From Vairimorpha necatrix (lineage: Eukaryota), in NCBI GenBank assembly GCA_036630325.1, contig CP142727.1, forward strand, positions 62,001 to 126,000: a stretch of 64,000 nt of DNA. Direction: 5' to 3'. Shown one piece after another: positions 17,082-53,092 of this stretch. The notes under the pieces are model-generated. The model was not told the DNA's origin and made no database searches. It saw nothing but the letters and a program-made list of their open reading frames with translations. Position 1 is the stretch's first letter. Every line of letters starts with the position of its first letter. The position numbers and the translations under genes are program-made.

Positions 17082-18354
17082 TATAGTCTAACAAAAGGAT
17101 ACGGACATAAAAACATATTTATGTAGGGACATTCATCATTGTACTAATACCACACTATTAAGATGTTTGTATTTAGTAGTTTATTACTTCTAAGGTAACA
17201 AAATAATATTTAAAGGTCAAAATTTCAATTTTTTAGTACTGCTTAAAGCACCACTAAATAATAATAGGCTTGTTATAATTAAAATTCAATAATAAATCAG
17301 ATCTGCTATGTTTCTTAATAATATGACAATATAAATGGAATAATCTATACGAATATCTAGTAAAATTACATCTATAAACTTAATACACTTGCATACCATG
17401 TCATCGAAAAAATAAGCCATAGGTATATCTTGTGTTAAATAATACCCTTCGGTATAATTTGGATTCATGTTAATTTTATATTTATCTTGGTGTATAAATA
17501 AACTCAAATATTTTTTATGATTTTACAAATTTATATTTTTATGCGGAAAAAATTTATTTATACTTTTTGAGTAGAGTTTGTTTGTATAAACAAACAAACA
17601 AATTATGCAAAAAAAATAATAACTTTAAAAATAGAATTTTTGGTCCTTAATAAATTATTAAGCAATAGTAAATTTCTTCGTTAAAATATCTATTCGCCAA
17701 TATTATTTCGCTGTTGTTACAATATTTAATATAAAAATTATTTACTCGCTTTTTATCGTATAGGTACTATATTATATTCTTTTTTATTTGGAAAAGAGGA
17801 ACTAAACATTGATTATATTTATGTCTGATCCTCGTCTACCTGTATATGAGAATATTAGTCACTTAAATACTCTCCATATATATATGGTCGACGTACCAAG
17901 CTCTGTGTATTTTCTTGCTGTTTGTAGAGTATTGTCCATCTATCCTTAACAGCGCACCAAAATGATATTACCCTGAAAACGCTTTAGATCAAAGTTGTAA
18001 TGCACGAAAACAGACATTTTATTGTACCCACATGTTTCATGAACGATATTCTTACTATAAAATTACTTATAACTGTCCAAAGAAAAATTTGATTTAAATA
18101 ATGCATTAAATTATAATAAAAGTTTATAAATAGTTAACTTGTTTAAAAATAAAACCATTTACAACACTAGATTGATTATTTTCGCGCATAGTACGCGACA
18201 GAAATTTTTAATTGATTTTTCAATTTTTAAAAAGTGTTTTTTGGAATTATACAAACCACATATACATATATATATACACATATATGTATATTGATTGTTC
18301 ATAATTTTTATAGCTAATTTTAATTTTAGAAGCTACTGACCCCCAAATAAAATT

Positions 18355-23600: not shown

Positions 23601-24491
23601 ATGCTACAAAATATTTTGTTCGTTATTAGTTTTGCACTAGGAAGTAATAGTAGTAATTTTTGGAGAGGATGGGAAGATCAGCCTAAGCATGGAATTTATA
23701 AATTAAAAAAAGACGATAAAAAAAATAATGAAAATAATTTAAAAGTTTTAAATGAAAGACAGCATCCCTATAAAAGATTAAATGCAGTTGCAAATAATGC
23801 AACCAATGAAAAAATGCAAACAAAGGAAATACACCTCGTGCAACGATTTGTCAACAATATGGTTCTTTACAATTCCCAAAATAATAACATTTCTAAAAAT
23901 TATGAAAACTATATCAGACGTAGTATATATTTTGATAGTCTTATACAAGAATGGGAGAATGCTAAAATAGATCCAATAAAGGGAAGTAAGGAATTAAAAT
24001 TTAATGACACAAACTACAAGAAATTTACTCTGCTCAAAGTATACACTAACGCCTGGTTATTTAAGTTTAAAAAAATATCAATTGAATATTTGCCGAAGAT
24101 TAGGACTGAGATACAAAATTCATCGATAAATGAAACATATAAAAAATTTATAATAGAAAATATAGATTGCTTATCACGAGTCATGAAATATTATACATCG
24201 TTAGTGCCATTTTACAAAAGTTACAGATATGAATCCAAAAATTTAATATATTACTATACTTTATTAAGTCTTAGATTACCATATCTATTTACCCATTTCG
24301 ACGTATGTGGGAAGTTTATACGTTTATATGAAAACATAATCGCCCAATTACCACTAAAATTAGACAATACTAGCAGCATGACAACTACATTGCTTGATTT
24401 GGGGGAGAAAATATCATACATAATTTATGCTCGAGATACCTTTCTAGAAAAGATCAAAGAAATGACAAATTTGCTCAGGAATTTGAAATAA
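23601..24491 (+). CDS. Secreted multigene-family protein, copy 1 (subfamily A)
   Basis: Signal peptide MLQNILFVISFALG, CCC motif, shared domain (FDSLIQEWEN...YLPKI...RLPYLFTHFDVCGKFIRLYE). Confidence 0.85.
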   Translation: MLQNILFVISFALGSNSSNFWRGWEDQPKHGIYKLKKDDKKNNENNLKVLNERQHPYKRLNAVANNATNEKMQTKEIHLVQRFVNNMVLYNSQNNNISKNYENYIRRSIYFDSLIQEWENAKIDPIKGSKELKFNDTNYKKFTLLKVYTNAWLFKFKKISIEYLPKIRTEIQNSSINETYKKFIIENIDCLSRVMKYYTSLVPFYKSYRYESKNLIYYYTLLSLRLPYLFTHFDVCGKFIRLYENIIAQLPLKLDNTSSMTTTLLDLGEKISYIIYARDTFLEKIKEMTNLLRNLK

Positions 24492-28252: not shown

Positions 28253-30966
28253 CAGAGGTGGGCAAATACTTTAAAGCTGTGGGCCAAATGAATTTTTTAA
28301 AATGTCTCCCGGGCCGGAGGACTATTTCGGCTTTGCTTTACACAAGCGGAAATTTCGGATAAGTTTTTCCCCTGCCCATTTTTAACAAAAATATTAAGTA
28401 TCATTTCAATTAGAATAAAATATATCAAGTACCTTTTAAGGAAATATTATTATAAATAAATGGATATTAGATAAACCACACAATTAAAGGTTTTATTTTG
28501 TTACATTTTAATGTCTTAACGATATTAATTATTTTATATTGACACATGGTTATTACAATTTAACATTTATATTGCATCTCTAAATATAATAGTAAAAAAA
28601 TTCAAAAAAGAAAAAAAAACATCAAATGTTAAAATAAATATTTAATGTTAATGCGAAACGTGAAATGTCGAATGTTCATCCGACATTATTTCTTCAAAAT
28701 TAGGTTCTAAATCACTTGTAGCAATTCTTAATACCGAGTGTATATTTTCGTCAATAATTTGTGATCGATACTTATTTTTCGTGGAAACCATTAAAGAAAA
28801 GGTTTTTATACAAATATAAGTCGAACTAAATAAAACGAGACATTTCTGAGCATAGTTCAAAAAATGTTTGAAATGTTCATTATTTAACGCGCCATAGAAA
28901 GCACTCAATTCGTTTGAGTGAAAATTTTCTTTTAGTAAATTATTTGATTGTAAGTCAATTAGTTCTAGTTGAATTTCAACAGGAGCTTCTTGCACGTCGA
29001 AATTGAAAGGATGGCCAATTAATGATAAAGGTTTTTCAATATCTTTGAAATCTTCTTTGGAATTCAGAATGCAGGTCTTGTGTTATTGCACTATATTTAA
29101 AAAAATCTGTATTTTTTAATGATTCTCGCCGTGCTTGCAATGAGGGGAAATGATTTAATAATTTATTATTAAAGTTTTCAGCAAATAAATTAAGTTTTGT
29201 CATAAATGCTTTGACGTTTGAGTGCATATTGAAAGCGAATTGGTTTTTACCTTGTAGATTTATATTTAGTTCATTCAAATATTTTACTATATCTACTGAA
29301 AACGAGAAATCGTTTAGCCAAGCCTCATTTTGCAATTCAGGAAAATCTTGTAGTTTTTCTTTTATCGACAAGAATGATACTATTTCATCAAGCAAATATT
29401 GAAATCTATGTAAAACTTTACCAATGCTAAGCCATCTCACTTCAGTGTAATAGGGAATTTCGTAGTAGTCACTTTCAATTTCTTTCAAAAATTCAAGAAA
29501 CTGTCGATGATTTAAGGCATGTTTTCGGATATAATTTACAATTTTGGTCACAACAGTAACGACGTGATTCAATTTCAAAACTTTTCTGCATAGCATTTCT
29601 TGGTGAATAATGCAGTGCAAAAATAATATATCGTGTTCTGGTTGTAACTTTTTTACTTTGTCGCGAATTCGTTTAAGTAAGCCTATATTTTCCCCCGTTA
29701 AACTAGGACAGCCATCCGTAGTGACGCTTTCTATTTTATTCCAAGTTAAACTAACTTTAACTAAATACTCTTCAACAGCGAGAAAAAAGTCTTTACCAGT
29801 AGTTGTATTTTTCATTGGATGCAGACTAAGAAGTTCCTCGATAATTTCACATTTCTTATTAATGCCGCGAATAAATATTAATAATTGACTTGTATCAGTA
29901 ATATCGCAGGACTCATCTAAAGCCAGAGAACAATAGGTAAAATCAGCAATTTTTCTGCTTAGCTGGTCAAGTAAGTTTCCTGAAATATTTTCAATCCGGC
30001 GTACTATTGTTCTTCTCGAAAGCCTTAGATTTTCAAAATAAGTTTCTTTTCAGGACAACATATCTCCGACACTTGTACCATGCATTGTTTAACAAATTCT
30101 GCTTCTAAAAACGCTTACAGAACTTATCAATTTTGTGTGCGACAGCATAACTTGCTTTTGTAGTAGATTTTACAATATTAATTCGTTTGGTAAAAATTTT
30201 TTGTTGCTGATTCAAGTTTTTTGTTAAGTTTTCAGCTATGTTTTAAAGTTCTTGTAGAGAAAGAGATGCATATTTTGGATGTTTTGTTGTAAAATGCCTG
30301 CTTAAATTGTATTCTTTGAAAACAGCAATTGTTTCCTGACAAACTAAACAAATTGCTTTCTTATTAATGTTTGTAAAAAGATATTTTACCGTCCAATCTT
30401 CATTGAAGTTTCTGCATTCCAAATCAACTTTTCTTTTTTTTAGTTTCTCTCATTTTAAAAGGGCTATAAAAAAATAAGTTAAATAAAAACAATAAAAAAA
30501 CACCAAAGTTTTAAAAATTTACTTACAAAAAGTCCACTTTTTCAATTTTATATATGCAAACCAATGGTAGATTCGAACTAAAAAAGAGTATGCGATCAGA
30601 ATAAAATAATAATTAACAATACCTGGGCTGCGATCTGTCGTCCCCCAAACATTGAGAGGCTGAGAGGAGTGCAGCATATGTCATCCACACATGCATTTTA
30701 AACCTAGCGCGATCTAATTTGTGTTCGATGAAAACCCCGCCACGAGAGCGATTGTCGCGAGCGACCCGCATCGTTCACACTAGTGTAATCAGCCTAACGC
30801 TTATTTTATTTCGCCTATTATATATACAGTTCGCATATTAATAATGTTTATGTCAATAAAATCTAATAAAGTGCTTTAAAAAATTGCGTTAGAATTTTTA
30901 AGCGGGCCGGATAAAATTAGCAAAAGGGCCGGATCCGGCCCGCGGGCCGGCTTTTGCCCACCTCTG
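28253..30966 (-). mobile_element. hAT DNA transposon, Buster/Charlie (GTF2IRD2-like) group
   Basis: Perfect 14-bp TIR CAGAGGTGGGCAAA and 8-bp TSD ATGTACAT (28245-28252 and 30967-30974). Confidence 0.95.
28648..30453 (-). pseudogene. Frameshifted hAT transposase
   Basis: BED-type finger (AICLVCQE...NLSRHFTTKH), LALDES, VTTDG, HCIIHQ, EVRWLS and C-terminal dimerisation region (FSSTYIC). The ATG at 30453 follows GCCC. Several frameshifts. Confidence 0.9.
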
Positions 30967-31999
30967 ATGTACATCGTTCAGAGTTATTATTGTTGTACGC
31001 AAAACTGATTTTAGAAAACATGGGTTTATTTATTTACTATATTTATAGTCCAAATGTCGAATATCTTGAGCGAATTACATTTGATAAATAATTGGAAGAC
31101 ATTTGGCATGTTATACTTTCAACAATTACCATTATAACAAGACAAATTTGTCATTCCATGGTCGTTTTTAGTAGATTTCATTTAGTAGCCAGCATATTGC
31201 CTCATGTGGGTCTTGGAAGATTTTTGACCAACTGCCAAGAGGCGTCAACAAGCCATAAGGGTAGAATAATTTTGAAAAAATCACCTAAAACACAAAAAGT
31301 TTATAGAACAAGAAATGTAATCCAAATGAAATTCAAACTATTTGTGAAATTTCGACTCTTAGGGATATTGTTCATAAAACTTTCGCCACTTTACGGTCTG
31401 TGCTGGATTCTAACGTAAAAAAAAATAGGGGAAGTCCAGGCTCAGATCGTTCCGCCGATCACACCCATTTAATAGTTCTTAAGGGTTGATAATGCTTAAA
31501 TGATATTCATTATCCCCATGCATATCCAAGCATTACTGGTATTCTGCCTTTTGACACATACATATAAATCTTACTATCTATTTCTAGCATCAGAATTTCT
31601 CAGAAATTTTAAATCTTATTATTAAAAATATGCAATTATTATTGTAAATTTATAATCTCACAATAGGAAAAATTGTGGTAACGGGATATTATTTTTTAAT
31701 GTTATAAAATATGCAAAAGAAAATTATTTATTATTTATGTGCACTAGCTTTTGCTATAATTTACTCTTTAGCTCTTATGAAGATTCTTCAACGTTCCTTT
31801 TATGATTTGATCTATATAATTTAAAATATTTAGTAAGTAATTATTCTTATTTGTTTTAATTAAATTCTTCGTATATTTCTGTAGTTCCATTATTTTTCAT
31901 AATAATGGTTTCTTATCATTTTAGTATGTACTTTGCAAAAAGTATAATTGTGATTAAATTATGAAAAATTCAATGAAATTTTATTTCTTACCCTTTTTT

Positions 32000-33181
32000 A
32001 TGATTCAATATTTTTCAATGGTTTTTAGTTCATATCTAGATAATAATTTTACATATTTTCCATTTCAATGTCAACAAGACAATAATAGTTATAGTGGCGC
32101 TTATAATTTACATATGAATAATAACAAAGACTCAACTTTGCTAAATCCCATTGATAACTTTGAAAGTTCTTCTAGTTTACAACAAAAAACTTACGAACAC
32201 ATGAAATTCAATATACAAAAAAAAAATTTCGATAACCCTTTACTTAAATTACAACATAATAATGATGATAATTCACATATTTTACAAATTGATGATACTC
32301 AAATCTACAATAATATTATGCCGCCATACATACAACAAAAAATCGAAAGTAATAGAATTGCTAATTTACAAATAACTTTAGATGCTTACACGCATACGAA
32401 TATACATCAATTAGAAAATATAAGTTCTAATAAAGGATTAAAAGCTACTGAACAAAAATTAAAGGTTCATCTAGGAAGTCTATCATCACAATATAATCCA
32501 TGTATTTCGACACAAAAATTTCAAGCAACGGGGTTGACAATGCAATTTATTACTTATTTAAGAAGGCGCCGTTCTTATGATGCCGACTACGCCGATAGAA
32601 GAAAAATGTTTATTTGTTCCTTAAATTATTGGCAACATGAGAAATTGATCGTATCAAGGACATCAGAAAAATATAAATTTTCCAAACCCAATTTATACAA
32701 AAAATATAGAGAAAATTGTCATATAACATTTTGTTGGTTACAAATATATAGAAAAATATTAAGTGAAAATTTACCAAAAATAAAAAATTTGTTAAAAGAA
32801 TCATCTATAGAGAAATTAATTAAAAAATCAATGATAGAAAACATAGAGTTTATATATCAAGCTATGATTTATTATGAAAAACTTTATCCCAAAAATTTAA
32901 GTTACGCTTATCATTCGGATGTTCTAAAAATGAGATTTAAGTTGATAAGCCGTAGATTACAATATCTTTATGATTACTTTAATATTAGTGAGAAATTTTT
33001 AGAGTTATACGAAATGATAGTAGAACATTACGCCGAAAACTTTGAAAGTAATACGACTATGAAAATAATTTTAAACAGTATGACAAAAAATTTAACAATA
33101 ATATTATGTAATCATGAGCAACACATAAAAAATTTAAGAGATAAATTGAAATTACTGAACCTTCTTAACGAAGATTATTAA
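32000..33181 (+). CDS. Secreted multigene-family protein, copy 2 (divergent; long Q/N-rich N-terminal extension)
   Basis: The ATG at 32000 follows CCCTTTTTT. C-terminal domain YW.HEK...YKF...LPKIK...IYQAMIYY...RLQYLYDYFNISEKFLELYE is shared with the paralogues. The signal peptide is weak. Confidence 0.8.
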   Translation: MIQYFSMVFSSYLDNNFTYFPFQCQQDNNSYSGAYNLHMNNNKDSTLLNPIDNFESSSSLQQKTYEHMKFNIQKKNFDNPLLKLQHNNDDNSHILQIDDTQIYNNIMPPYIQQKIESNRIANLQITLDAYTHTNIHQLENISSNKGLKATEQKLKVHLGSLSSQYNPCISTQKFQATGLTMQFITYLRRRRSYDADYADRRKMFICSLNYWQHEKLIVSRTSEKYKFSKPNLYKKYRENCHITFCWLQIYRKILSENLPKIKNLLKESSIEKLIKKSMIENIEFIYQAMIYYEKLYPKNLSYAYHSDVLKMRFKLISRRLQYLYDYFNISEKFLELYEMIVEHYAENFESNTTMKIILNSMTKNLTIILCNHEQHIKNLRDKLKLLNLLNEDY

Positions 33182-34953
33182 GAAATATTTATAAGACAAT
33201 TAAAAAACCATGCTTAATCTTTTTATTATTATTTTTCTAATTTGTCGGACAATCTTGGATTGAAAAACATAAGAAAAATAATTACGATTATTATTTTCTA
33301 AAATCTAAATTTTATGTAACATCATGTTCATGTGCTCAACTAGTATAATATATTTTTAAAGAGACATTTTACGAGTTTTAAAAAACTATTTTTATTGTTG
33401 ATAAGATAGGCATTATTTTTGTAGAAAAAAAAGGATCATGTATCGTAAATTGAACGATTTTGCAGTTTAATAGAGGTATATAGTATACCTGTCAAATTTG
33501 GCACCCTAATCCGGATAAATAGGTTAATTTTATATTGAAAATGCATAGAGCTTTGACTATTATTTAATTTATCTAAAGTCGTAATTGCGATTTTAAGATA
33601 TAAAGTAAAGCTGTTGCCGATAAAAATATTAATGATAGAAGATATCAGTAATAAAATAATATCTAGCTAAAAAATTAGTTAACCGTGCACCATTTTAACA
33701 TAAAAACAATAATAAAACTTGAGAAATTGGTGGTTGAAAAAAAATGAGAAGAATTTAATACCAGTTTAATATTTAAAAGCTTCGATACACACTGACTAAA
33801 CATTATGTATTTTGTATAAATTTCGCTAACTGTATGTCTCGTACGTCACTATTTAAATGGCGTTGTAATTGTTACGATTATCATAAAATTTACTAATACC
33901 GTACAACCGAATCGAAGCTTCGTTTTACTGAGTATACGTAATGTGACACTTTAAAATATAAATGCATGGCTCAGCAGCTTGTCCTCGAAGTTGAAATAAA
34001 AATAGAAGCCAATATAATATTACTGAAGAGGCATAACAATATGCTTCGCATATATTTGATATTCAAATATATCTAATGAATTTTTTTCATTATTAGCAAT
34101 ATAATTCGTAGTTTTTTTCGGAGAACGTTCTTATGTGAAGTTTTTTAATATACCTTTACAGCTGTTGCGATCTGCTTATACATAATATTTGAAACTTATT
34201 AAATACTGTTAAAAATCTATTTCTTTCTAAATAATTTTTCACTTACTTCCTTTTAAACTCATTTTTGTCGTTATTTATCATAACATTTTGACTGTCTTGT
34301 CACATTAATTTAATGAGGAAATTATCTCTTCAGCCCACGTCATCCACTTTACATGCGTAAAATTTTTTTTCAAAAAATTGTATGAAACCAATAGGACAAT
34401 GAGGCGGTTAAAATCACCTCTCAAGTACAGTAATTCGTAGTTTTGACATTTTATATGTGTAAAAAACTAAAGAAACTTCCAAACGATAGACTATTGTTTG
34501 TTATATAAAACTTTCTTCTGCGTTTCAGAAATAAATCTTGGAATTTAGATTTTTTTGCATATTTAAAAGTGGGTGATTCTAGCCTAATGAGAAACTCTTA
34601 AAAAATATTCTGGAGTTAACGTGTTAATATAGATGTTTTTTTATCATTAAAAATATTAAAAATTGAATATAAAATTTTATACTAACTTAGTGAAACGAGA
34701 ATGGAGATTTTGTGTAAACAAATGTAATAAAAAAAATATTATAAATTTCTGATTTTTTGTTAACACAGAGTAAACTAAAGGAAATGTTATTATAGTAGTT
34801 AGATTATGTAATGTGCGATATTAATTTTTTTTATAACTCGCAAGGTCTGACATATTGTATCGCGACCTAAGTATCCCAAAGTAAGTTTTAAAAATTCCTT
34901 TTTGATTTTAATTTTGTTTTTAGTGTATAATATTTATTTGGAGCATGCCAGAT

Positions 34954-35743
34954 TTTTTTTTCTTGCAGTAAGAGGTAGGGAGAAACCTTACATAGGGACC
35001 AGAGGGATTTGAGTGTGATCCTCATCTAACTGGTACTGTGAGATTCTTACTCACTAAAACTCCCTCCATACAACTTGCCGGTGCAGCAAGCTCTGCCGTA
35101 TCCATTGGACTTTGGATCCAGGAGAACACTTTCCATTTATACCTCAAATCGCGTCCAGAGTGACCTCACAGCAGATATAGAAACGGGCATGGTTATCTAT
35201 AACCCGATGAGAGACATCATCGTACTGACTCAAAGGTCCCCACAATCATCTGTATTGCATACACGGCTCCTTACACGACCACATCACCAGCCCGGCTTTT
35301 TTTATTAGGCTGCGCTGACCACCAGTCTCCCACTAGTTTCGGCCACCGTGTTACAGAATTTTGTAGGATAGGGTCCAAGAGACCTTTTATTGTCCTACTT
35401 CGTCTAGTCTCTTAGTTAGCTCTAGGATACGACTCTAGAGTGCACCAGCCATGGGCTCCAACTTAGGCCGTACCCATTAGATACTTGTATGTATCTTTAA
35501 GTCACCACAAGAGTGACACTGTTTTCGGCCTTGAGGTGCGTTCCTACACTAGATGCCAATCCCCTTGTGGCTGGACACACACAAGTTTCAATGAATCAAC
35601 TTAATGATTATCGTGGACATTTTCATCTTCTGAGTTGTTCCAACTGCATCATAGAAAGTAGAAACAATTTTGGTGCCTCTGGGAATCGAACCCAGCCATT
35701 GCTCAATGGAAGCATTGCATTCTACCACTGTGCTAAGGGCACC
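34954..35743 (-). mobile_element. tRNA-derived SINE, full-length copy 1 (~790 bp)
   Basis: The 5' end is a tRNA-like head with A box (TAGCACAGTGG) and B box (GGTTCGATTCC). The 3' end is an oligo(A). A 16-bp TSD TTGGAGCATGCCAGAT lies at 34938-34953 and 35744-35759. A second copy starts at 54167. Confidence 0.9.
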
Positions 35744-36099
35744 TTGGAGCATGCCAGATAAATTATTAAAAATTTGAAAATTGTGAACTTTAAACTTTAA
35801 TGGAGTCTAACCCCATTTTAACTCAAAATAGAGACGAATTTATTATTTTTTAGCGTATTAAATCTTAAGAATTAATTATTTTTTATTACAAAATAAACTC
35901 ACAATACCTTCTGACAGTTTCCCCAGTTCCTTCTAAACTTACATCTTGCGCTTTCGAATACTTTTCCTGATCAGCATCAAGATCACGTCTGATTGTATAG
36001 TTAGACTATCTAAAGTTATTTGAAGTACTTCTTTCTAAATATATGATCTAGTTTTTGGTGTATATCGGAGCTCTGATATTCGCGCGGTATAAATTAATT

Positions 36100-37159
36100 G
36101 GCGCTACTTAAAAATTCGCACCCCCCTAAAAAAAATTACATTGACCAATTAAATTTATATAAAAAAAAATATTTTTAACCCTTAAAATTATATTTAAAAC
36201 AATATTTTTATGAAAATATGAATTTACAAAAGTTAAAATATTTAAAAAAACAGTTATAACATATTATTTAGTTCAAAAATTTAATTACTTTAACATATAA
36301 AAAATATCAATTATTTTTACGAAGGCTAATTTGATTGTAAATGGTTTGAATATTCTATATTTTCGGCGCTACTTAAAAATTCGCACCCCCCTAAAAAAAA
36401 TTACATTGACCAATTAAATTTATATAAAAAAAAATATTTTTAACCCTTAAAATTATATTTAAAACAATATTTTTATGAAAATATGAATTTACAAAAGTTA
36501 AAATATTTAAAAAAACAGTTATAACATATTATTTAGTTCAAAAATTTAATTACTTTAACATAGAAAAAATATCAATTATTTTTACGAAGGCTAATTTGAT
36601 TGTAAATGGTTTGAATATTCTATATTTTCGGCGCTACTTAAAAATTCGCACCCCCCTAAAAAAAATTACATTGACCAATTAAATTTATATAAAAAAAAAT
36701 ATTTTTAACCCTTAAAATTATATTTAAAACAATATTTTTATGAAAATATGAATTTACAAAAGTTAAAATATTTAAAAAAACAGTTATAACATATTATTTA
36801 GTTCAAAAATTTAATTACTTTAACATAGAAAAAATATCAATTATTTTTACGAAGGCTAATTTGATTGTAAATGGTTTGAATATTCTATATTTTCGGCGCT
36901 ACTTAAAAATTCGCACCCCCCTAAAAAAAATTACATTGACCAATTAAATTTATATAAAAAAAAATATTTTTAACCCTTAAAATTATATTTAAAACAATAT
37001 TTTTATGAAAATATGAATTTACAAAAGTTAAAATATTTAAAAAAACAGTTATAACATATTATTTAGTTCAAAAATTTAATTACTTTAACATAGAAAAAAT
37101 ATCAATTATTTTTACGAAGGCTAATTTGATTGTAAATGGTTTGAATATTCTATATTTTC
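36100..37159. repeat. Four near-identical 265-bp tandem units, each beginning with the Merlin TIR
   Basis: Units start at 36100, 36365, 36630 and 36895. The only difference noticed is ATATAAAA vs ATAGAAAA. Confidence 0.95.
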
Positions 37160-38019
37160 TTTTTTCCTTTTAAACTCATCTAACCAACATTTAATTCTTA
37201 TTTTATTTATTCCTCCACGCTTTCTATAATCATGCTTAAGATGCGACCACATATTTTCTACATAATTTGTATTTTGTCCTACTTCATTACAAAATCCCAT
37301 AGAGTGATTTACCACACTATGGTGAGAACCAAATTCACTTATAGCACGTGGATAGGATGGATAACCATCAGTTACTATATCCGTGCCTACTTTTACATAT
37401 TTTTTTAATACTAGTAAAATCGTTTCCCATTTTCTATTGGGTATTAGTTCCACAAAAAACTCTCTACAATTTCCTTCCAACACACCTCCTATTATCCACT
37501 GAATTCCAGGTTCAGAATCCAATCGACTAGACGGATTCGATACTATAATTCCATTACAAATAGCTGTTTCGTCTATTTGTATCCTCTGACCAACTTCACC
37601 TATCGTTGTAACAACAGTAGAACACTTAGAAATTGTTTCCATTATTATTTCTTTTACAGAAATATATGTTGGTTCAGAAGTTTCACACATGTTGATGGCC
37701 TGAAAATTAGTATATGACAAACACCAACAATAAATGCAACGAAGAATTTTTTTAAATTCAATATCTAAAGATTCAAATTTAGACCTTTATTTAATGAACA
37801 TCTTCGTTTACAAATTTTTTTGCTACATTTGTACCCCTTTCCTTGAGAAAACAAAGATATGTTTTAAATAAACATAATTCCTTTCCACTGATCATTAGTA
37901 CAGGGAATACAAGGATATAACAAGTTGTTCTTCAATCCGTAGTCGATTGCCCTGTCATTATCAGTGAAAATAGGATTGTATGGATTGAATTGAAGCATTT
38001 CGTCCATCATCCTGTTCAT
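37121..38019 (-). pseudogene. Merlin/ISXO2 DDE transposase, disrupted in its N-terminal third
   Basis: IQIDET, IVTDGYPSY, VNHS and TNYVENMWSHLK. The ATG at 38019 follows CCCTTATA. Stops and a frameshift lie upstream of 37720. Confidence 0.88.
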
Positions 38020-38470: not shown

Positions 38471-41400
38471 TGACGTAGTCCAGAGGAGCTACCTCTGGAT
38501 AAATATAGTTCGATGTAATTAATGATTTTATTGTTATTGAATAAGCCTCGTTGGGCATCTGTTACGGGATACTGATCCCTGGCTTGGTAGCCCTTCCTTG
38601 GTCTATGTTCCCAAGGGTAATGATCGTTAGTTTGTTTCATGATCCGGTGGGGGTCAGGGCAAAAAAGAAATAAATATTCGATTTTTGGAATAGACCGGTC
38701 GAATGGTCTATTTTCCAAAAAGGGAAAATTGATAAAATAAAAATAAATATTTTGTGGTATTTATAATACCACATTCTACCCCCTCTAAAACTTTATGTTC
38801 TTAACATGTATCCATTCGTGGATTCCATTGACCTTTATCCACTTTCCTTTAGACCCTACTTGCGTGATTCTTCGCTTCCTCCGATATTTCCGCTCTAGCT
38901 TTTTGGCTGTTAAATTTCTTACATATACCATGTCTCCTATTCTGTGTTTAACTGCAATTGGTATATGTTTTATCTCCCGCATTCGTATTGGTCTTTTCAA
39001 TGGATCGTAATATTCCTTTCCCGTCAAAGCAGCATTGGGTGAACATCCAATAGTCCTGTTGTAGTTATTGTTGATTACCCATTCGCACTTCTCAACTGCT
39101 GTATGTATGTTTTCACCTTTCATAATAGATAGTATAAACGATGTGGTACGGTTTATTGACTCTGAGATACCATTTGAACTTGGTGTATAAGTTGGAATGC
39201 GTAAATGTCTTATGTCTGATTCCTTTAGATATTGTTCCAACTCTTTGCTTATATATTGTTTTCCATTATCAGTTATTAGTACGGACGGTTTAGATTCCGT
39301 GACTTCCATCCAATTGTTTACTGCTTGAATAATTTCTTCCCCTCTTATTTTATACGATAAGTAGACCTTTGTGTATCTAGTTTTTATATCAGTAATTGTG
39401 ATTAAAAATGCCTTTTCGTGTTTGCCTTTATGTTTAAAGTTATCTAGGCTAAATGGACCATATATGTCCGAACTAATTCTTTCTAACTTGTTTTCTGACC
39501 ACATAGGGGCTCCTACCTCTCTTTTAGTAAATGTTAATTTGTATCCTTTGCATTTTTTGCAATCTTGTACTACTTGTTTGATTTTCTTCAATAAGTAAGG
39601 GACGTAAAAAAATTTCCTTAAGTTGTTATACATTGTCGTGATCCCTCTATGTCCTTGATTATGGTGGATTTTCTGTAACCAGTACTTTACCTTGGTTGAT
39701 CTGATGTATATCTTACCTTGTTTGTTTGTTTTTATCCTTTGGCCTTTGTCTCTTATTACTGCGTCTTTGACAATTTTTATGTATTCATCCTCATTAGGTT
39801 GAACCATTGTGAAACATCTTGATAAGTTATCTGCAATGATGTTTTCTTTACCTTCAATGTGTATTAATTTATGGTTAAATTCATTTATAATAAGTTTCCA
39901 TCGACTCATTCTTGAAGTCTCGAGCTTTGGGCGGTGTAAGCAGTTTTTGCTATCTGTTCTTACTTCTACAAAATTTCCTTGTAAGATGCTTTTGAAATGG
40001 ATTAGTGATAGAAGGATTCCAAGATATTCCTTTTCTACAATGCTGTAATTTAATTCGACTTTTCCAAATTTTTTGCTGAAATATCCAATTGGTCCATCTT
40101 CTTGGTATAAGACACTACCTATTCCTGTGTCCGAAGCGTCGCATTCTAAGACGAATGATTTAGTGTAATCTGGGCAAATTAACTTTGCACGTTTCTCAAT
40201 AAATTCACTTATTTCTTTGATGATATTTTGAATATGTTGAGTTGATTCTATCTTTGCTCCTTGTTTTAGCATATCCGTGATAGGTAGTAATTTTGTTGAT
40301 AATTTTGGCAAAAATTTTCTATACCATCCAATCGTACCTAAGAGTTTTTGTACATCTCTTTTTGTTTTAATTCTTCTTTCTAAGATTTCTTTAGGAATAA
40401 TTTTATTAGCTGGAAATACTCCTTCAGCATTAATAACATTTCCTAGTACCGTTATTTCATTTTTCATAAAGTTGCTTTTTTCAAAATTTATTTTTACATT
40501 TTTTTCTTTAAGTTTATTTAGAACTTTAATAATTAGATCGTTATGTTCTTCCTTTGTCTTTGAGAATAAGACAATGTCATCTATATACACGAAGCAATTG
40601 TCCACTTCGTGTAATATTTCAGTAATGTATCTTTGAAAAATTTTCGGCCCAGGTTTAATACCAAAGGGTACACGTTTGTACCTGTATTGGGCTCCCATTA
40701 TCATAAAGGAGGTCAAATCTCTACTTTCCTTGCAATCTTAATTTGGTTAAATCCGTTCTTTAGATCTATTTGAGAAAAGTATTTGTTCTTTCCCATTCTG
40801 AGTATACAATCGTCTATTCTAGGGATTGAGAAAATGTCATCAGCGATGTGATCGTTTATATCTTTAAAATTTATCACTAATCTCAACTCTCCGGTTTTCT
40901 TTTCTACAAAATATCCAGGACTTGCAAACGATGCTCTCGATTTTTCGATAATGTTTTCATCCAGTAATCTTCTTACTTCCTTCCTCGCAGCTTCGTGATA
41001 TTTAAACGCAATGTTGTAGAATTTGTGACGCGTCATATTCAGTTTCTTTATTATGGTGAACTTGGCTTCATCCATTTTCATATAAGAGAAATTATCATTA
41101 AGCTTTTGATATTTTTTAAGGTGGGATATATGAAGTTCATTAGGAGTAGACGCGTAAAGTAAATTATTTAATCTTTCGTTTAACACTTCGTCTGTGTTTG
41201 GAATTGCGTCCATAAAAGGAATTTCCTCTTCATGTATCCTCAATGACTGACTTGTAAAGTTAATTGTTGCTTTGTTCTCGCTTAACCAATCTGATCCTAG
41301 TAGTAAATCTACGGGACAATCTTGTATAACATAAAAGTCGGCATTGGCAGTTATGCTTGGGGTGAAAGTTATCTTTATTGTAACTTTGGAGGTAATTGTT

Positions 41401-42681
41401 TTTTTGTCTCCATTTCCAAATATCGTGGTGAAAGGTTGGCAAGACTGAGTTTTATGGTCATGTTGATTAATTACTCGTTCACTTATAAAGTTGAAATGTG
41501 AACCTGTATCGATCAAGAATAAATGATGTATTGTCTGAATTTTTCCAATTATTTTTACTTCTCTTTTTCCGCTCCTGTTTCCTAGTTGAATCACCATGTT
41601 ATTTCCTTTATTTCGTCCTTCATCTTGTTTCGATATATTTTTAGTAACCTGTAGGTTGTTACGTAGCCTGCAGTTTCTGGTATCATGGGAAAAACTTTTG
41701 TGCGTGCTACAGTAGGTCGTTCTTGACTTGGTCTGGTTTCGTTGTTCGTTGTAATTACCTGCACTTTCATTCCGCTTCCCTAACTGAGATAGAATGCCTG
41801 ATTCGAGATTTTTTAGATATTCTATCACTTCTAAGGTGCTTCTAGTGTTTACTTCATTCTTATACAGCTCCATTTCTGTTTGTTCACCCAGTCCTCTAAA
41901 AAATACTTCTGAGAACTTTCTCTCTGACTCCTGCTTACTTAATCTGTTGATAAAGCTATAAGCATCCAACTTTAGGGAAATATCCTTTATATAGTCTTCT
42001 AGATATCGATAGTTGCATTGTTTTACATCTTCAAGCTCTTGTGTAATCCTAAATTTCATGTTTCGGGGATATGCCATTTCAAGTAAGGCCATTCTCAATT
42101 TTAAATATGACGTGTTTTCTTTCGCAGTTTGGAAGTGATCACCAACACACAAACTTCCATAAATTAAACCCATCTGTTCGTCGTTCCATCCATTGGCCTG
42201 TGCTAGCCTCTCAAACCTTTCCAGTTGCTTCATTGTGATCTCGGAATTCTTCTTTATGATATTAATCTTTTCTTTACATATGACTTCGGTTCCTTTAATT
42301 TTCATGTCAAATTCTCTATATTCGCCGTTTGCGAATTTATCATCATTATTATTCTTTAGTCCGTCTTTGAATTCAAAATGACGTAGTCCAGAGGAGCTAC
42401 CTCTGGATAAATATAGTTCGATGTAATTAATGATTTTATTGTTATTGAATAAGCCTCGTTGGGCATCTGTTACGGGATACTGATCCCTGGCTTGGTAGCC
42501 CTTCCTTGGTCTATGTTCCCAAGGGTAATGATCGTTAGTTTGTTTCATGATCCGGTGGGGGTCAGGGCAAAAAAGAAATAAATATTCGATTTTTGGAATA
42601 GACCGGTCGAATGGTCTATTTTCCAAAAAGGGAAAATTGATAAAATAAAAATAAATATTTTGTGGTATTTATAATACCACA
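38471..42681 (-). mobile_element. Ty3/Gypsy LTR retrotransposon, full length (4211 bp)
   Basis: 303-bp TG...CA LTRs at 38471-38773 and 42379-42681 with no differences seen, 5-bp TSD ATTTT, PPT AGAGGGGGTAGAA abutting the 3' LTR, and PR-RT-RH-IN order. Confidence 0.97.
38785..42548 (-). pseudogene. Gag-Pol polyprotein with one frameshift inside RT (~40730)
   Basis: Knuckle-like CSTHKSFSHDTRNC, protease LIDTGS, RT DLKNGFNQ / VPFG / YIDD, RNase H CDASD, integrase HHCC + DDE (SSDI, ITDNG, NGISE). Adding one base restores IAKESRDLTSF. Confidence 0.9.
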
Positions 42682-42717: not shown

Positions 42718-45700
42718 ATGAGGGTAAGGACAGAGCAGAAAGAAGAAACCGAAAAAATTACAAAACAAACCTCTATAGCAAACATAGACAAAGTAGACAC
42801 AGAAGAGAAAGAACAGGGGCCAGAACACACTAGTGTGCCCACTCAATCCACTTCTGAGACTCTTGCAGCAGTACTTGTGAGTACCGAAGCGAGTGAAGAA
42901 GAGTGGCCTCAAAGAGTATTTCTATCAATCATAAATAGATTTGGTAGAATGCCAAGAGGAGGGTGGAATAAAGCTACCGAGTTCTTCTGTGGAAAATTTA
43001 TGTCTAACATGAGTTCACTAGAATTCAAGGGCAAAGCGGAGAAAGCACTCACTAGTAATAGTGGTAGACAAATGACAGCCCGGGAATTCTTAGTGAACCC
43101 TACCAAAAGAAGAAAAGCCGAAGCTGGCTCGAAAGAAGGGATTAGTCTCTTTGAAACCGAGCTCTTCCTGAAAGCACAAAAATTGTTCTTGGAGAAACTC
43201 AGTTGTATTCAGAACACATGTGTGGACCAGGTAGAAAGAACAAGGAAGATTTCTTCCTTGAAGGTTGATCTGTTGAAACTTGATGCTACAGTCAAGGCGG
43301 TAGATAGTCATGTTAGATACCACCCCCCTCATAACATGACAGAGATGGCAAGGATACTGCAAGCTGCACAGATCTGCTATCAGGAAATGGCCAGTAAGAA
43401 GCCTAAACCTTCGTCTTGGAAAGAAAGTATCTTGAAAAAGATTACTGAGATCAAAGACAAGGTAGTGCTTATCAAAAAGGCCAGGGCTTTTGATAAACTC
43501 TCAAATGAGGAAAAGCGTGAAGTCAAGAAGGTAATGCGTGAACTCAACATGCTTGCATGCTTACACCGAGATACTTCTGAAGCTATTGCTATACTCAACG
43601 AGAGGAAAGCCATATAATCAAGGAAGCTAGAGGTCGCAGACCGACGCAGAGAGTATAGGCGTGAAAATCAAAACTTTGAGCTATATAGAAGCAATTTCTA
43701 TAGAAAACTCAAGTGTGCCAATGAGGTTACTCATAAAGTAAGTAAAGAAGATATTAGTTCATTCTGGTCTACCATGTGGAATAAGAAAGAGCAATCCGAA
43801 GACTGCAATAGTTTCGAGGAGTATCTTCTAGAATACATTCCTGATAGCCAAGATCAGATCACTTTCCCAACCTTGCAAGAATTTGTAGATATTATTAAAT
43901 ATTTACCAAATTGGAAGGCTGCAGGCTGTGATGGAATCTTCAATTTCTTTATTAAGAAGTGTGAAGCTCTACATCCATTCCTTTACAAGATTGTTAAGGA
44001 AGTATGCTTGGATGGGAAAGAACCCGAAGCTTGGTTCTACAAGGGGATTACTTATTTAATACCCAAAGGTACCCCCACTAGTGGTAATGATTTCAGGCCT
44101 ATTACCTGTATGTCGAACCTCTACAAGCTTACAACGAAATGCACTACGAAAGTAATGCAGCCAATTGTAGAAAGTAGAGGGCTACTAGCAGAGAACCAAC
44201 TAGGGACAGTTAGACAAGTCCAAGGAGCAAAAGAGCAAGCTATGGTTAATATAGCAGTCAATAAGGAGCATGGAAACAAGCTGAAGACTATGTGGATAGA
44301 TGTAAAGAAAGCCTACGACTCCGTAGACCATTCTTATCTATTAACATGTATTAGCAAGTTGAATCTCCCTCAATGAATAAGTAAATTCTTAGAAGCCACG
44401 GTTAAAAGGTGGCACATTGAGATAAAATCAGGATCGGAAACGATACTGAATAAGAAGATTGAAAGAAGCATATTACAAGGTGATTCCTTGTCGCCGCTTT
44501 TGTTTGTACTATGTATGGACCCGTTGAGCAGGAAACTGAATTCAACTTACCCAAAAGTAGGAATACAGACTCACGAAAGTGTTTATGTAACAAACCATCT
44601 TCTTTTTATTGATGATCTTAAGCTCCTCGCAGAGAACGATGACGTTTTAAAACTGATGAAAGAGGAAACTAAAAAGGTTTTCTCTGCTGTAGGTTTAGAA
44701 ATGAACAGGAGTAAGTCTGCAACTAACTGTAGTGATTGTAGTGAAGATGCATTAGTACTAGAAGGGCATCAAGGATACAAATACCTTGGAATAACAGAAG
44801 ATGCCTCTAGTGCTATCAAAAGAGAGACTTTTGAAAAAGTGAGAAGTGAGATCCCACAGAGGGTTGAAAAACTGTGCAAGACTCAATTAAATGTTAAGAA
44901 TATGATTCGAGCTATAAACGAGCATGCAATATCAGTAATAAACTACCATGTAGGATTATTAAAATTAGAACCAATAGATTTCAAAAGTCTCGATTTTGAT
45001 ATCCGACAGGTACTTATCAAGTACCAGGTCCATCTACAGCCAGCCTGCAAGGAAAGACTATACCTTTCTAGATCCTAAATGGGTAGAGGCCTCATAAGTA
45101 TCGAAGATAGAAGCGAATGTATGCTTCTGAATATTTATAAAGCGTTAGATGGGTCTAGAAATAGCTCACTAAGACGGGCAGCGATACTTAAAGTAGAGGC
45201 GGAGAGCAAATCCCACTTGTTTACAATAAACGAGTATCTAAGGATTAGGTATAGCTTTGTAGGAGAGATAACCCAGAAGATGCTAATAGAATCCCAAAAA
45301 GAGGCGCTTTACAACAAAATTAACATAAGGACAAACCATGGAAAGTTGTTTAAAGCTAGGGACAATGATTTAGTAAGCATTAGGGACTCTTCTACCTGGC
45401 TGGTTAAAGGAAACAATCAGGCTAGATCCGAAGCAATTTACTGCTTCCTACAGGATAGAAATATCTTCTGTGGACAAGAGGGACAATGTCCCCATTGTGG
45501 ATCTCATAGGAAGACCGTGGATCATTTAGCTACCAAGTGTGATCGAATGTTGGGTTTTGATTATATGAAAAGACACAACGAGGTAGTTAGATGCATTCAT
45601 CTCTTACTATGTATTAAATATGGGTTTAAGAAGACAAAGAAAATACGTGGACACTCAGTACAAGAGATCATGGAAAATGATCGTGCAGAAATAAGAGTAG

Positions 45701-46155
45701 ATACGAGAATATCCACTAATATAAAGGTAACCCATAATAAGCCTGATATTCTTGTGTTTGACAAGAAGAAGAAAGAAATTTTAATAGTTGAAGTTGGTAT
45801 AACCAACCAGGATCGACACACAATAGTTAAGAATGAAAAACTAAGAAAATATGACCTTCTTGCAAATGAACTGGGACTAATACATAAATTCCAGACAAGA
45901 ATAATTCCTTATGTAATGCCATGGGATGGAGTGGTGACCAAATATCACAAAAAGTACATCAGGATCCTAAAAAACCAACCCTACCTAGAAGTATATATCC
46001 AGTCTATTGTGATGAAGAAGACTCTAGAGTCCATCTCTTTGGAACGACGACGAGGATACGATCAGGAGGATGCAGGAGAAGAAGAAGTGGCTAGAGCTGT
46101 AAGCGCACTAGCGAATATGGTGACTGTTAAAGATGGTGTCGGCAAAGGGGAATGA
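42718..46155 (+). pseudogene. Single ~1145-codon RT-RLE ORF with three in-frame stops
   Basis: ORF pieces 42718, 43774, 44488 and 45079 are all in the same frame. Stops are at 43615 (TAA), 44374 (TGA) and 45076 (TAA); the gaps translate without stops. Confidence 0.9.
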
Positions 46156-46301
46156 AGCTGCTAAAGTGAAGTTGGAAAACATTAATAATTCCACAGAAAC
46201 CAAAGTCTGTGAAGAGCTGAATCCCATGAGCGATACCGGGGAAAGCTGTGCTATGAACATCTAATCTTAATGATAAATTAACTCAATAAATCTTTTATAA
46301 C
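42718..46301 (+). mobile_element. Non-LTR retrotransposon, R4/Dong-like (RT + restriction-like endonuclease)
   Basis: 15-bp TSD TAGATTTCTACTAAA (42703-42717, 46302-46316). Single frame with RT (NWKAAG.DG, FRPITC, QGDSLSP, NHLLFIDDLKL), CCHC (CPHC...HLATKC), RHN and PD..D...IVEV. Confidence 0.93.
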
Positions 46302-49001: not shown

Positions 49002-49913
49002 ATGGTACAATACATTTTATTTATAATTGGTTTCGGACTAGGAAATGATAATTCAGATTTTATTCCGTGGAGGGGATGGGAAGATCGCCCAAACCATGCG
49101 ATTGCTATACGGGAACCAAAAAATAACGACGTTAACAAATTAGTAACAAAATACTCAGGTCGAAGGTCTTTACTATCTAGAAAAAACTCAACAATCCGAC
49201 CAATTAAAAATAATTTGAAAAAAACCTATCATGTTGAGATAATAGAATTATTAAGATTTGTTAATAAAACAAAGCATGATGTACTTTTGGAGAAAAGCAC
49301 GTCTGAAAACAATAACTATTATGATCGACGTATTGAATGTTTCGATAGCCTTTTGCAACAGTGGGAGAATGAAAAAATAGAGATAAAGGTTATGTCAAAA
49401 AGATATGAATTTCGTGATCATGATATTTACATTAAATATAGACATAATTCGATCGTAAGTAATAGATGGATAGGAAATTATAATGAAATATTGATTAAAT
49501 ACTTGCCGATGATTAAGAACGAAATAGAAGATGCATCAATACAAGGAAGTGTTAAACGATTATTATTAGAAATTTTGGAGTCTATTTCACGCGCAATGAT
49601 ATATTTTGTCAAATTAGAGACTAAATATTTAAATTACAAATATGACTACAAAAGGATAGTAATTTACTATAGTTTGTTGATTTATAGATTACCATATCTA
49701 TTTGACTATTTCGATTTAGTTGGGAAATTTATTGAAGTATATGAAAAAATAATAGATCAGTATATTAAAAAAAACCTCAAGTCTAACGACATGATGACGA
49801 ATTTTATCACGTTGTCCAAAAAAATTACCTACTTAACTAAACATCGCAATAATTATTTATTAAGAATAAAAAATAACCTTACATTTCTTAAGAATATAAA
49901 AGAAATAAATTAG
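49002..49913 (+). CDS. Secreted multigene-family protein, copy 3 (subfamily A)
   Basis: Signal MVQYILFIIGFGLG, PWRGWED, FDSLLQQWEN, ISRAMIYF and RLPYLFDYF. CCC motif. Confidence 0.88.
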   Translation: MVQYILFIIGFGLGNDNSDFIPWRGWEDRPNHAIAIREPKNNDVNKLVTKYSGRRSLLSRKNSTIRPIKNNLKKTYHVEIIELLRFVNKTKHDVLLEKSTSENNNYYDRRIECFDSLLQQWENEKIEIKVMSKRYEFRDHDIYIKYRHNSIVSNRWIGNYNEILIKYLPMIKNEIEDASIQGSVKRLLLEILESISRAMIYFVKLETKYLNYKYDYKRIVIYYSLLIYRLPYLFDYFDLVGKFIEVYEKIIDQYIKKNLKSNDMMTNFITLSKKITYLTKHRNNYLLRIKNNLTFLKNIKEIN

Positions 49914-52174
49914 TATAATTTGTTTAATATTTATAGATTTTTTTTCTTACATAAGCTTAAAGGAACATTTATAATTTATTACAAACAAATTTGTTTATAT
50001 TATAATTTTGGGATAATTTATGTATACGTATTTTTTTTTAATTTATGTGAATATGTACTAAAATGAGATCCAAAACAATTCTATAATCTCATATGCGTTT
50101 TGTATTTATATCATTTTTTAATATTATGAGCATTTAATGTGCTATTGCTTTTGTTATTGAGATGCATACATATGATTTTTAGATTAGATGCAAACATAAA
50201 CATTTTTATTAAAAATTTTATCAAAGCTTTTTGAATTTTATGATTCCAAAGTTTTAGAATTAATTTCATAAAAATAAAAAACTCGTTCAATGGAGCAATG
50301 ATAAAGGTTAAAGTCAACAGTTTACACTATTTTGACTCTCAAAAAACTGAAGATTTCGAAGCATATTTCCCAAATACTGATCAATATAGAATTATTTATA
50401 TAATTTAATAATACATAGAATTTTAATTGATTGCTTTAAGAATAGTATATATATCAATCGCTGAAACTAGAATGACTAAAAATACAATCTAATGAAAAAA
50501 AATCTCGTAAAATATAAATCCATATCAGTAATATTATGTTTTTATGCAAAGTAAGAGCTCCAAATTTTTGCGTTGAACAATTAAAAATACAAGAATCTAG
50601 TCTTATACTTAAATTTAAATTGTAAAATGAATCCAAAATAAACAGACAAAACAGATAGTTTGTAACATCGAAGATAGCTTTACAAAATTGCAGTGCAATA
50701 GACGGCCATATTCATTCTAAAGAGACAAGTGAGTACTTTTGAGTTGTCAGAAAAAGAACATTCGTTTTTGAACGATTATTGGGAAGTTATTTAAATATTT
50801 TAAAACATATTTATGGCAACGCGGAGATTTATTGTGAACCTAGAAAAAAAGCATCCGTTTATGAAGTGCGTTGATGATGTTGGTACAATAACTGCAGACG
50901 TAACATAAGCTTATATTCAAATTTATCAGTTTTTATGAAAAAAATGGGTTGTATGATGAACACCTATAAAATAAAGTATAAAATTGTGCAAAAGATTTTC
51001 TTATCCTATTGTATTCTGGTCGTATTGCATCTTCTTATGAGCCATAGTTTCTAATTTACATCTTTTATATAATTTATTTATTTCATATAACGTAATTTAT
51101 TTAGATTTGTTCATAGATAATAATTATTTTTATATATATATGTAAAACAATATGAAAGAAAAATGAATAAAAATTAGAACTTAATAAGAAGGTTTGTAAG
51201 CTTACTCAATAAAATCACCTATAAAAAATCTAAAATAATTTGATATACTAAATTTGGTACTTAAAATTCTTTTTTTAAATATTTACCTTCTCTATTTGTG
51301 CTTAACACATTTATTTTTCTGCTGTTGACTTGCTATTTTTTTAGAAATTAGAACTTTGATGTTTCGTTAGACCATTTGTGCATGAATGCCACATATTTAT
51401 ATCATTGATCATATTTTAGCTTATAGAATATAATGAGTACTAATTTTTAATCAATAAACCTAATGTTCATTACAAAAAGAAATCATTTTTACACTTTCTT
51501 TGCCCTTCTACGTCATTATATTAATTTACACTGAATATATGTTCAACAATACTTAATTAAGTATTTTACTGATAGACTATGCTCCACATGTCCTATTACA
51601 TCATACTTCGCTTTTGGCATACACATAATCTCTGTGACTTATACTTTTACGTTTAAAATCTTTAAATACAAAATATAATGGCGGTTTATGCATGTTAGTA
51701 CTATATGTTATTTGATAGTATTATCTCTAACTACCACATTGCATTGGTTTTTTGGTTTAGCTTTTATATAGCTTAAATTATTTTTTCTCAAGTCTCAACT
51801 TTTTTCTTATATGTGTTATTGAGATTATTTAAAAACCTCAAGACAATTAATAACGCAAACTAGCGTGATTAATAAACTTATTCATATATTTTTGATAAAT
51901 AGGGTATTAAAATTTAATTTATTTTATTGTCGCATAAAACTTCGGACATGATTTATGGTAAATCTTGTTTTTAGAAATATTAGCAATTGTTGGTATATGA
52001 AAATTAAAAGCCAAAATTTTTATGTCATAATTGATCGACTTCATTGTAACATATATTATAGTTCAAAACTATTTTATGCAACGAATATTAGATTATCTGG
52101 AATATTTCTTTAGTAAAATACTACTTTTACCCAAAAAAAATATTAAAAAGGAAAATAATTCTAAACCCCCTATA

Positions 52175-53092
52175 ATGTTGCTATATATTTTATTAGTTGT
52201 TAGTTCCAAATTTGCTGATAATAATCAGCTGATCTCACATAATGATGCCAAAAAACAATATAAGAAAAAGAAATTCGTCAATATTGATTTTATCGATAAA
52301 AAGAACGAAATTATTGAGACTCAAAAAAAAATAACTAGTAAAAGATCTTGTTTAAGTCTAAAAAGAACTAAAAATATTAAAAGGCCTATTCCCAAAGTTA
52401 AAATAGTAGAATTGTCTGAGATAGAAAGTTTTGTTGTTTTCATGAAAACACAATATCATAAAAATAATAATTCTGTTACAGAGGAAAACACGCTCAATGA
52501 TGAAGAAAAACTGAATCTTTTTAATAATTTTTTAATTTTGTGGGAGAAACAGAAACTAGAATTAAAAGGTACACTTGTAAATTGGAAATTTTATAGTAAA
52601 GACAAATATAGTGAATATAAAAATTGTTATATAAGAAACAGCAAATGGATTAAAAATTATAGCGAAATAATAAAAAAATATTTCCCGCAGATTGAATGCG
52701 AATTAGAAAAAGCTCCAATAGATGAAATGTCTAAAAAATTAATAACAGAAAATTTAAAATCTATCTCCAGAGCTATGACCTATTTCGAAGGGTTATTTCC
52801 TAAGTACATACATTATGGATTGCATGCGAATTTATTGAAAGCTTTATATAAATTGATAATTGAAAGATTTCCCCTCCTTTTTGACTATTTTAATATAACT
52901 GAAAGATTTATAAATTTTTATGAAATTATAATAAATCAGCATATTAGAAAAGTGCGGGATTCAAACGATTTGAAAATTATTTTAAAAAAAATGTCTAATA
53001 ATTTGACAAAAATGTTGTTTTCTTATAAAAACTATATACATGGTGCCAAAGAAATTTTAATATTGCTCGGAGATCTTGAAACTTCCAATTAA
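52175..53092 (+). CDS. Secreted multigene-family protein, copy 4 (subfamily B)
   Basis: The real start MLLYILLVVSS at 52175 follows CCCCCTATA. It contains LNDEEKLNLFNNFLILW, ISRAMTYF and ERFPLLFDYFNI. Confidence 0.88.
   Translation: MLLYILLVVSSKFADNNQLISHNDAKKQYKKKKFVNIDFIDKKNEIIETQKKITSKRSCLSLKRTKNIKRPIPKVKIVELSEIESFVVFMKTQYHKNNNSVTEENTLNDEEKLNLFNNFLILWEKQKLELKGTLVNWKFYSKDKYSEYKNCYIRNSKWIKNYSEIIKKYFPQIECELEKAPIDEMSKKLITENLKSISRAMTYFEGLFPKYIHYGLHANLLKALYKLIIERFPLLFDYFNITERFINFYEIIINQHIRKVRDSNDLKIILKKMSNNLTKMLFSYKNYIHGAKEILILLGDLETSN

Follow-up and report, generated by a model that had tools for sequence, protein, structure and literature searches.

A dispersed tRNA-headed SINE family with a structured 3' module in the microsporidian Vairimorpha necatrix

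Contig CP142727.1 of Vairimorpha necatrix carries, on its minus strand, a non-coding element of 790 nt that is confirmed to be a member of a real, many-copy mobile family of this microsporidian. It displays the sequence-level defining features of a tRNA-derived SINE: a head that is not a tRNA but carries A and B boxes, a lack of coding capacity, and interspersion with variable duplications and an A-tail. All positions given here are those of the window, the 64,000-nt stretch of the contig that was analysed. The best explanation, which we hold to be very probable, is that of a tRNA-derived SINE whose RNA would be started by Pol III and copied in trans by a resident LINE, and whose tail module would have come from a retroelement. 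An earlier note on this DNA recognized much of this design, but overlooked its most informative part, a structured 3' module that holds the only run of four T (T4) of the element.

The element runs from 35743 to 34954 and has a GC content of 45.7%, versus 28.2% for the window. It is bracketed by an exact 16-bp target-site duplication, with the 5'-side copy at 35744–35759 and the 3'-side copy at 34938–34953, and this repeat does not occur a third time in the window. In the direction of the element, a tRNA-derived head (35671–35743) containing a Pol III A box (35725–35735; element positions 9–19) and B box (35682–35692; element positions 52–62) is followed by a non-coding body of about 600 nt (35074–35670), the 3' structured module (34972–35073) and an oligo(A) tail of eight A (34954–34961). 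The longest stop-free stretches, of 51 codons in sense and 88 in antisense, provide no coding capacity. The boxes, the oligo(A) end, the 16-bp duplication and the GC-richer composition had all been listed in the earlier note, and all were verified in the sequence. The homologous copy that it had placed at 54167 was likewise recovered, as a full-length alignment with the focal element at 73.7% identity (54167–54942, plus strand). This second copy is old and decayed, with no flanking duplication of at least 9 bp; it has a head of the young type (97% identical to that of a young copy) on a body of 74% identity, and a 4-nt insertion at the end of the head. This mosaic suggests head replacement or conversion. 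The window also contains a decayed 64-bp fragment of the tail-module region (17817–17878, minus strand; blastn 76.6%, E 2e-5).

The genome comprises 15.0 Mb in 12 contigs. At least 41 long matches, including the focal copy, were found, with 40 of the 348 first-look candidates scored, and the others are 91–95% identical; the same scoring gave at least four short 5' pieces. A 23-letter motif from the tail has 87 exact sites, distributed over all 12 contigs, versus none for its reversed control, and a relaxed form of the motif has 98 sites in the genome. The family is thus dispersed. Of the 30 top copies, 24 are flanked by an exact duplication of at least 9 bp; in a control of 868 mismatched flank pairs, none was seen. 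The 26 duplications found overall are 10–18 bp long (median 14), preceded by a pyrimidine in 23 cases and starting with A or T in 24; one to three extra nucleotides are present at the 5' junction of 16 of these 26 duplicated copies. Among 53 alignments, eight start late, representing 5'-shortened copies, and one ends early. Target-primed reverse transcription is indicated by the duplications of variable length, the 5'-shortened copies and the extra bases at the 5' junction; the hallmarks of target priming first described for the single copy, A-tails among them, are thus found in most of the top copies. The earlier note had named copies devoid of duplications or tails, together with a body matching another element class, as evidence against its reading; most of the top copies were found to have both duplications and tails, with A runs of 8–26 in all 30.

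Four copies with a variant head are 99.2–99.8% identical to one another and carry A runs of 17–26, indicating recent activity of this subfamily. The recency claimed in the earlier note therefore holds for the family, though the focal copy, whose nearest fetched relative is 95.6% identical, is by sequence identity placed outside the youngest group. The head of this youngest subfamily (L026, L028, L029 and L030) is 83% identical to the main type and its body 98.6%; the head has a Leu/Ser-like A box and scores 28.6 bits on the mascRNA model, under the cut-off of 42.5. Duplications are kept in one of 20 older copies selected by the motif (74–93% identity) and in one of three other divergent copies. 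Several older copies have common flanks, and therefore part of the copy count represents segmental duplication. Common 5' or 3' flanks were observed for L104–L108, L118 and L119 and for L012 and L014, so that these copies travelled inside larger duplicated or recombined units. Tandem head-only pieces of 63–81 nt were also seen immediately upstream of full copies, as were two copies in tandem (L018, G000:C6:347804-347965; G000:C9:791339-792947). A search of viral contigs gave no matches to the tail pattern and 14 to the head pattern, none of which resembles the element.

The last ~100 nt of the element are predicted to form a four-helix module resembling RF00524, the Rfam family of the Drosophila R2 3' UTR element, and more precisely its 3' half. 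The order of its parts is P1, U4, a hairpin with a 7-nt loop, P3, P4, U3 and P1', and the U4 tract on the 5' side is the sole T4 run of the element (35056–35059). Positions 79–206 of the RF00524 model align with the module and have their parts in the same sequence, from P1 through the U tract, the hairpin and P3 to the closing U tract and P1'. The focal module scores 21.3 bits (E 0.054) and that of the young copy L029 scores 21.5 bits, both under the gathering cut-off of 38, and by score the module is outside RF00524. It differs from that family in having neither the 5' half nor the long hairpin insertion, and in its carrier: R2 is specific to rDNA, whereas the element described here is dispersed and tRNA-headed.

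The module is not confined to this genome. A pattern with four free hairpin-stem positions matched 57 metagenome loci, and these positions are complementary in 53 of them, in four different combinations. The remaining four loci have one common combination and are taken as chance matches; the one scanned lies behind a bacterial polymerase gene. Many of the 57 matches are redundant, and 42 were left after 12 redundant and three short ones had been dropped. The full order from P1 to P1' was found in 10 of these 42 loci in addition to the focal copy, versus 0.49 expected from shuffles, for an architecture that was defined post hoc, 3' U tract included, after the sequences had been viewed. In a set of 13 rows, 13 of the 18 module pairs show change on both sides, a number equalled in none of 500 shuffles, and the figure is partly circular since the rows were selected for architecture. 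Independent support comes from the LINE locus L146, which scores 44.5 bits on RF00524 and so exceeds the cut-off of 38; two others among the 10 loci scanned score 35.3 and 27.2 bits. Frames upstream of the loci were scanned for 14 of 37, picked for length, and proved to be gypsy-like in six cases, copia-like in five, non-LTR in two and unrelated in one. Among the non-redundant matches (drawn from L123–L179), 32 of 42 contain the half with U4 and the hairpin and have no closing half within 130 nt. Most of these half-module matches follow pol genes of chromodomain gypsy or of copia elements; their closing half may be farther off, or the hairpin may work alone. No description of the module outside R2 was found in the literature searched, which consisted mostly of papers available without subscription.

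What does the module do? Two readings compete evenly. It is possible, if short of likely, that the module is an ENE-like 3'-end protector, in which U4 and U3 on top of P1 would bind the A-tail of the same RNA in a short U-A-U triple helix, with the conserved 7-nt loop, perhaps a T-loop, clamping an adenosine. Such a protector would stabilise any polyadenylated retroelement RNA, regardless of the enzyme that copies it. The U tracts lie on both strands immediately above P1, with a G-C closing pair in 12 of the 13 rows, and the Rfam R2 consensus independently shows the same two tracts. The motif stands behind gypsy or copia pol genes for 11 of the 14 proteins scanned, and these elements do not use target priming; in addition, four non-LTR-like metagenome matches have a run of at least seven A about 50 nt downstream. 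ENEs in the 3' UTRs of LTR retrotransposons are described in the main text of one report as protecting the tail (PMC12501189), and a Drosophila R2 and its short derivative, both of which keep the R2 structure, are described as ending in poly(A) (PMC3414825). The ENE and dENE elements described in two papers (Evade ENE, KSHV PAN, TWIFB1; PMC12501189, PMC13541005) are comparable: they too occur in retroelement 3' regions and, ahead of an A-tail, have U tracts in both strands over a helix closed by G-C. Unlike these, the present module has shorter U tracts, and where they have a simple internal loop it has a multiway junction with a hairpin of conserved sequence; any triple helix is hypothetical here. 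There is room for only about three triples, the upper side of the U tracts is a multiway junction where a canonical ENE has an upper helix, the 3' U tract belonged to the post hoc filter, and the full architecture is missing within 130 nt in the 32 half-module loci; each of these points counts against a protector.

An equally possible reading, drawn by analogy with the R2 3' UTR and the R2 protein, is that the module would be the handle by which the reverse transcriptase of a stringent LINE recognises the RNA, the original partner with the same tail having been lost or gone undetected. The likeness to RF00524 fits such a handle, as does L146, a LINE 3' UTR bearing the module at a score above the cut-off. 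SINE tails are reported, in the text available, often to come from the 3' ends of partner LINEs (PMC5786205), and the short R2 derivative is described as retaining the structure (PMC3414825). No resident carrier was found to match: 57 fetched sites of the 98 relaxed-motif sites are all SINE-derived, and the other 41 were matched by eye to SINE coordinates. The very young copies also imply that a motor worked recently, which sits poorly with a lost partner, and LTR elements bear the motif as well. It is conceivable, though rather doubtful, that a 3'-end module independent of the enzyme is widespread among gypsy, copia, LINE and SINE RNAs, the portion of the Drosophila R2 3' UTR described in Rfam being one instance, and that this module captures poly(A) as a short triple helix with a multiway junction as its cap; the SINE would then have acquired it for stability or tail presentation, not as a LINE-specific handle, and would use a LINE without the same tail.

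Two non-LTR families were recognized in the genome, one R4/Dong-like and the other APE-type; a third LINE family could be missed, because 150 of the 835 RT candidates were scored. The name R4/Dong-like follows the domain layout and the repeat table of Nosema bombycis (PMC3614468) without a tree. This family is dispersed and abundant, with at least 120 matches when 114 of 765 candidates had been scored. It has an open frame of 1199 aa and a C-terminal region with a zinc finger and a restriction-like nuclease. Its 5'-shortened copies have duplications in 12 of 22 cases, and the ten duplications outside TA microsatellites are 10–15 bp long, with a median of 12 versus 14 for the SINE (P = 0.08). 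A near full-length member, split across several frames, is located in the window at 42718–46300 on the plus strand; the 3' end of this family is fixed and rich in T, and many of its insertions are at TA-rich sites. The APE-type family encodes APE and RT in 1241 aa, is clustered and nested, and has a second subfamily at 65%. Its endonuclease has a Pfam match, and a blank result of a genome search with PF14529 was a false negative. Many intact 1242-aa frames of this LINE are arranged head-to-tail or nested, as in L102 (G000:C1:486500-494000), which has a 5003-bp period, and further clusters were seen on C3, C4, C6, C11 and C12. It has few close database relatives. About one cluster region is present on each of several contigs, and a link to centromeres would be a guess. 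Many intact RT frames are present in the genome.

Both LINE families are T-rich at the 3' end and do not end in poly(A). Comparison of the SINE tail with the 3' ends of 30 R4/Dong-like loci by blastn, shuffled local alignment and the module model detected no homology, and the same methods gave the same result for the APE-type LINE and its second subfamily. This absence and the T-rich ends weigh against the LINE-partner part of the best explanation. A tail in common with a resident LINE, as expected of the stringent type, was thus not found among the scored RT candidates. An RF00524 scan of the genome returned one chance-level match among 49 scored of 652 candidates, and pattern searches returned no non-SINE-type variants of the module; divergent carriers may exist. 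Two module-bearing metagenome LINE proteins used as queries retrieved only the known families, at ~23–35% identity. The best candidate source of the enzyme is the R4/Dong-like family, with its restriction-like endonuclease, because its duplication lengths are similar to those of the SINE, a choice in which our confidence is about even, with the APE-type family or a lost LINE as alternatives.

In the best explanation, Pol III would start at the head, as its promoter boxes predict, and would, in at least a part of the transcripts, pass the internal T4 without stopping. Termination would come at the first T run of the flank, which for the focal copy is a T5 located 60 nt past the element. A resident non-LTR retrotransposon would then copy the RNA in trans, primed on the A-tail, and the conserved four-helix module, probably taken from some retroelement 3' UTR, would aid survival or recognition of the RNA. 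The earlier note had correctly described the T4 at 35056–35059 as the sole run on the transcribed strand, but its further proposal of selection against Pol III terminators was not sustained. A single run is rare against the window background, which has a mean of 10.9 runs per 780 nt, but not against shuffles of the element, where the probability of at most one run is 0.68 when dinucleotides are preserved and 0.21 when single nucleotides are shuffled; the composition of the element alone thus predicts the scarcity. The T4 is retained in 28 of 29 young copies, and it is this retention that needs explaining, not the solitude of the run. Nothing longer than T4 is found within 25 nt downstream of 10 of 40 tRNA loci of the same genome. 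The T4 of the element may therefore terminate Pol III here, in which case transcripts would end before the tail, contrary to the best explanation. No RNA run was among the sequencing runs listed as carrying the element; contigs from three of four runs compared span most of it. For run X1, the summed contig depth over 34700–36000 is far greater near the 3' end of the element than near its 5' end; the flanks are uncovered, the run type is guessed to be DNA, and contig depth cannot rank parts, making this a lead only.

Could the family instead be the by-product of a functional host non-coding RNA, with a tRNA leader and a structured body, that was retroposed? The fold of the whole element is somewhat better than that of shuffles (z −2.33, 0/20 as good), a modest excess, and six or seven acceptor pairs are retained in 28 of 29 copies, both of which would suit such an RNA. 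The body has no Rfam family at cut-off, and among six copies of 74–95% identity no covariation was found in it: two-sided change is present in 18 of the 217 predicted pairs, and the covariation term is unfavourable at +7.39. A structured body was rejected on this null result across the six copies. Several subfamilies with differing heads were observed and no single conserved master locus was seen, and overall a host RNA is an improbable source.

The head scores 25.5 bits on the Rfam tRNA model, under the cut-off of 29, versus 54.7–75.2 bits for the 63 genuine tRNA loci of the same genome that were scored. A T4 or longer run lies within 25 nt downstream in all 40 of the tRNA loci compared, whereas no T run stands behind the head, from which it is 610 nt to the only T4 within the element; the head is thus not a normal tRNA, as had been stated, and has no terminator of its own. 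An authentic tRNA gene beside an unrelated repeat, or else a non-autonomous DNA or LTR element, is a very improbable account of the locus, given these scores, the absent T run and the movement of head, body and tail as a single unit within duplications of variable length, set against the tRNA-Met(CAT) label assigned to the head by ARAGORN. In the predicted minimum-free-energy fold, the acceptor stem and T arm are kept, whereas the D arm and the anticodon arm give way to one long hairpin. This differs from the short refolding of the anticodon arm that had been suggested earlier.

The ancestry of the head was compared over 40 of the 63 scored tRNA loci, mostly one per distinct score, with His, Val and Tyr absent from the set. 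Ala(TGC) is closest, with 52 of 73 positions identical and rank 1, and Gly(TCC) is at rank 14 with 44 of 73. The earlier label Gly(TCC)-like was drawn from the loop letters alone, and this ancestry is rejected, as is that of Met(CAT), which ranks 29–35. Within this set, Ala appears from sequence identity to be nearer than Gly by a modest lead, and no isotype is assigned.

What is new in this element? Its type is ordinary, and the novelty is the family itself in microsporidia together with the testable tail hypothesis. The lepidopteran SINEs PxSE and HaSE, of the SINE2 class, are described in the main texts as built alike, a tRNA head that holds A and B boxes being followed by a non-coding body and a tail, with duplications around the element (PMC8010984, PMC5786205); the same descriptions set them apart by a length of 252–333 bp, versus 790 nt here, and by their hosts, versus a microsporidian here. 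The present family also differs from SINEs with LINE-type tails in that no LINE sharing its tail was found in the genome. The R2 SIDEs of Drosophila are similar in being non-autonomous and more than 500 nt long, in keeping the R2 3' structure and in having a poly(A) end, and according to the same account they differ in their ribozyme start, 28S co-transcription and site specificity, versus a Pol III-type head and dispersed sites here (PMC3414825).

For microsporidia, the repeat table of N. bombycis lists a SINE class of 28,669 bp (0.18%) beside Dong-R4 LINEs, an entry that is one table row, with neither sequence nor structure in the main text (PMC3614468), and the word SINE is absent from the main text of two microsporidian transposon surveys (PMC4202319, PMC7313128). 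No characterised microsporidian SINE was found in the literature searched, composed for the most part of papers outside subscription; the survey supplements may list the family. The family thus fills a gap, as these surveys, in their main texts, barely mention SINEs. With about a hundred copies, or more, in 15 Mb, the family may provide strain markers and would explain false tRNA calls. If it is true that the R2-like module is functional in a SINE as well as in LINEs and LTR elements, its role cannot be R2-protein recognition only, and the 100-nt RNA is an easily tested candidate for a poly(A) protector of a new kind.

The remainder of the window is rich in other repeats. Genes of a gypsy-like LTR retrotransposon occupy 38785–42548 on the minus strand, where the module model did not find the tail module. 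DNA transposase fragments are present on the minus strand at 37121–37690, with an ISXO2/Merlin-like DDE match, and at 29036–29815; the latter has no Pfam match and looks hAT-like. Five similar plus-strand frames of ~290–410 aa with hydrophobic N-termini (23601–24491, 31961–33181, 49002–49913, 52076–53092 and 61107–61976) are apparently one expanded family of secreted proteins; a Pfam scan of one of them gave no match. A microsporidian of the Vairimorpha/Nosema type is indicated by the MCM3 encoded in the window, for which the nearest named relatives are those of Vairimorpha apis (73%) and Nosema granulosis (61%).
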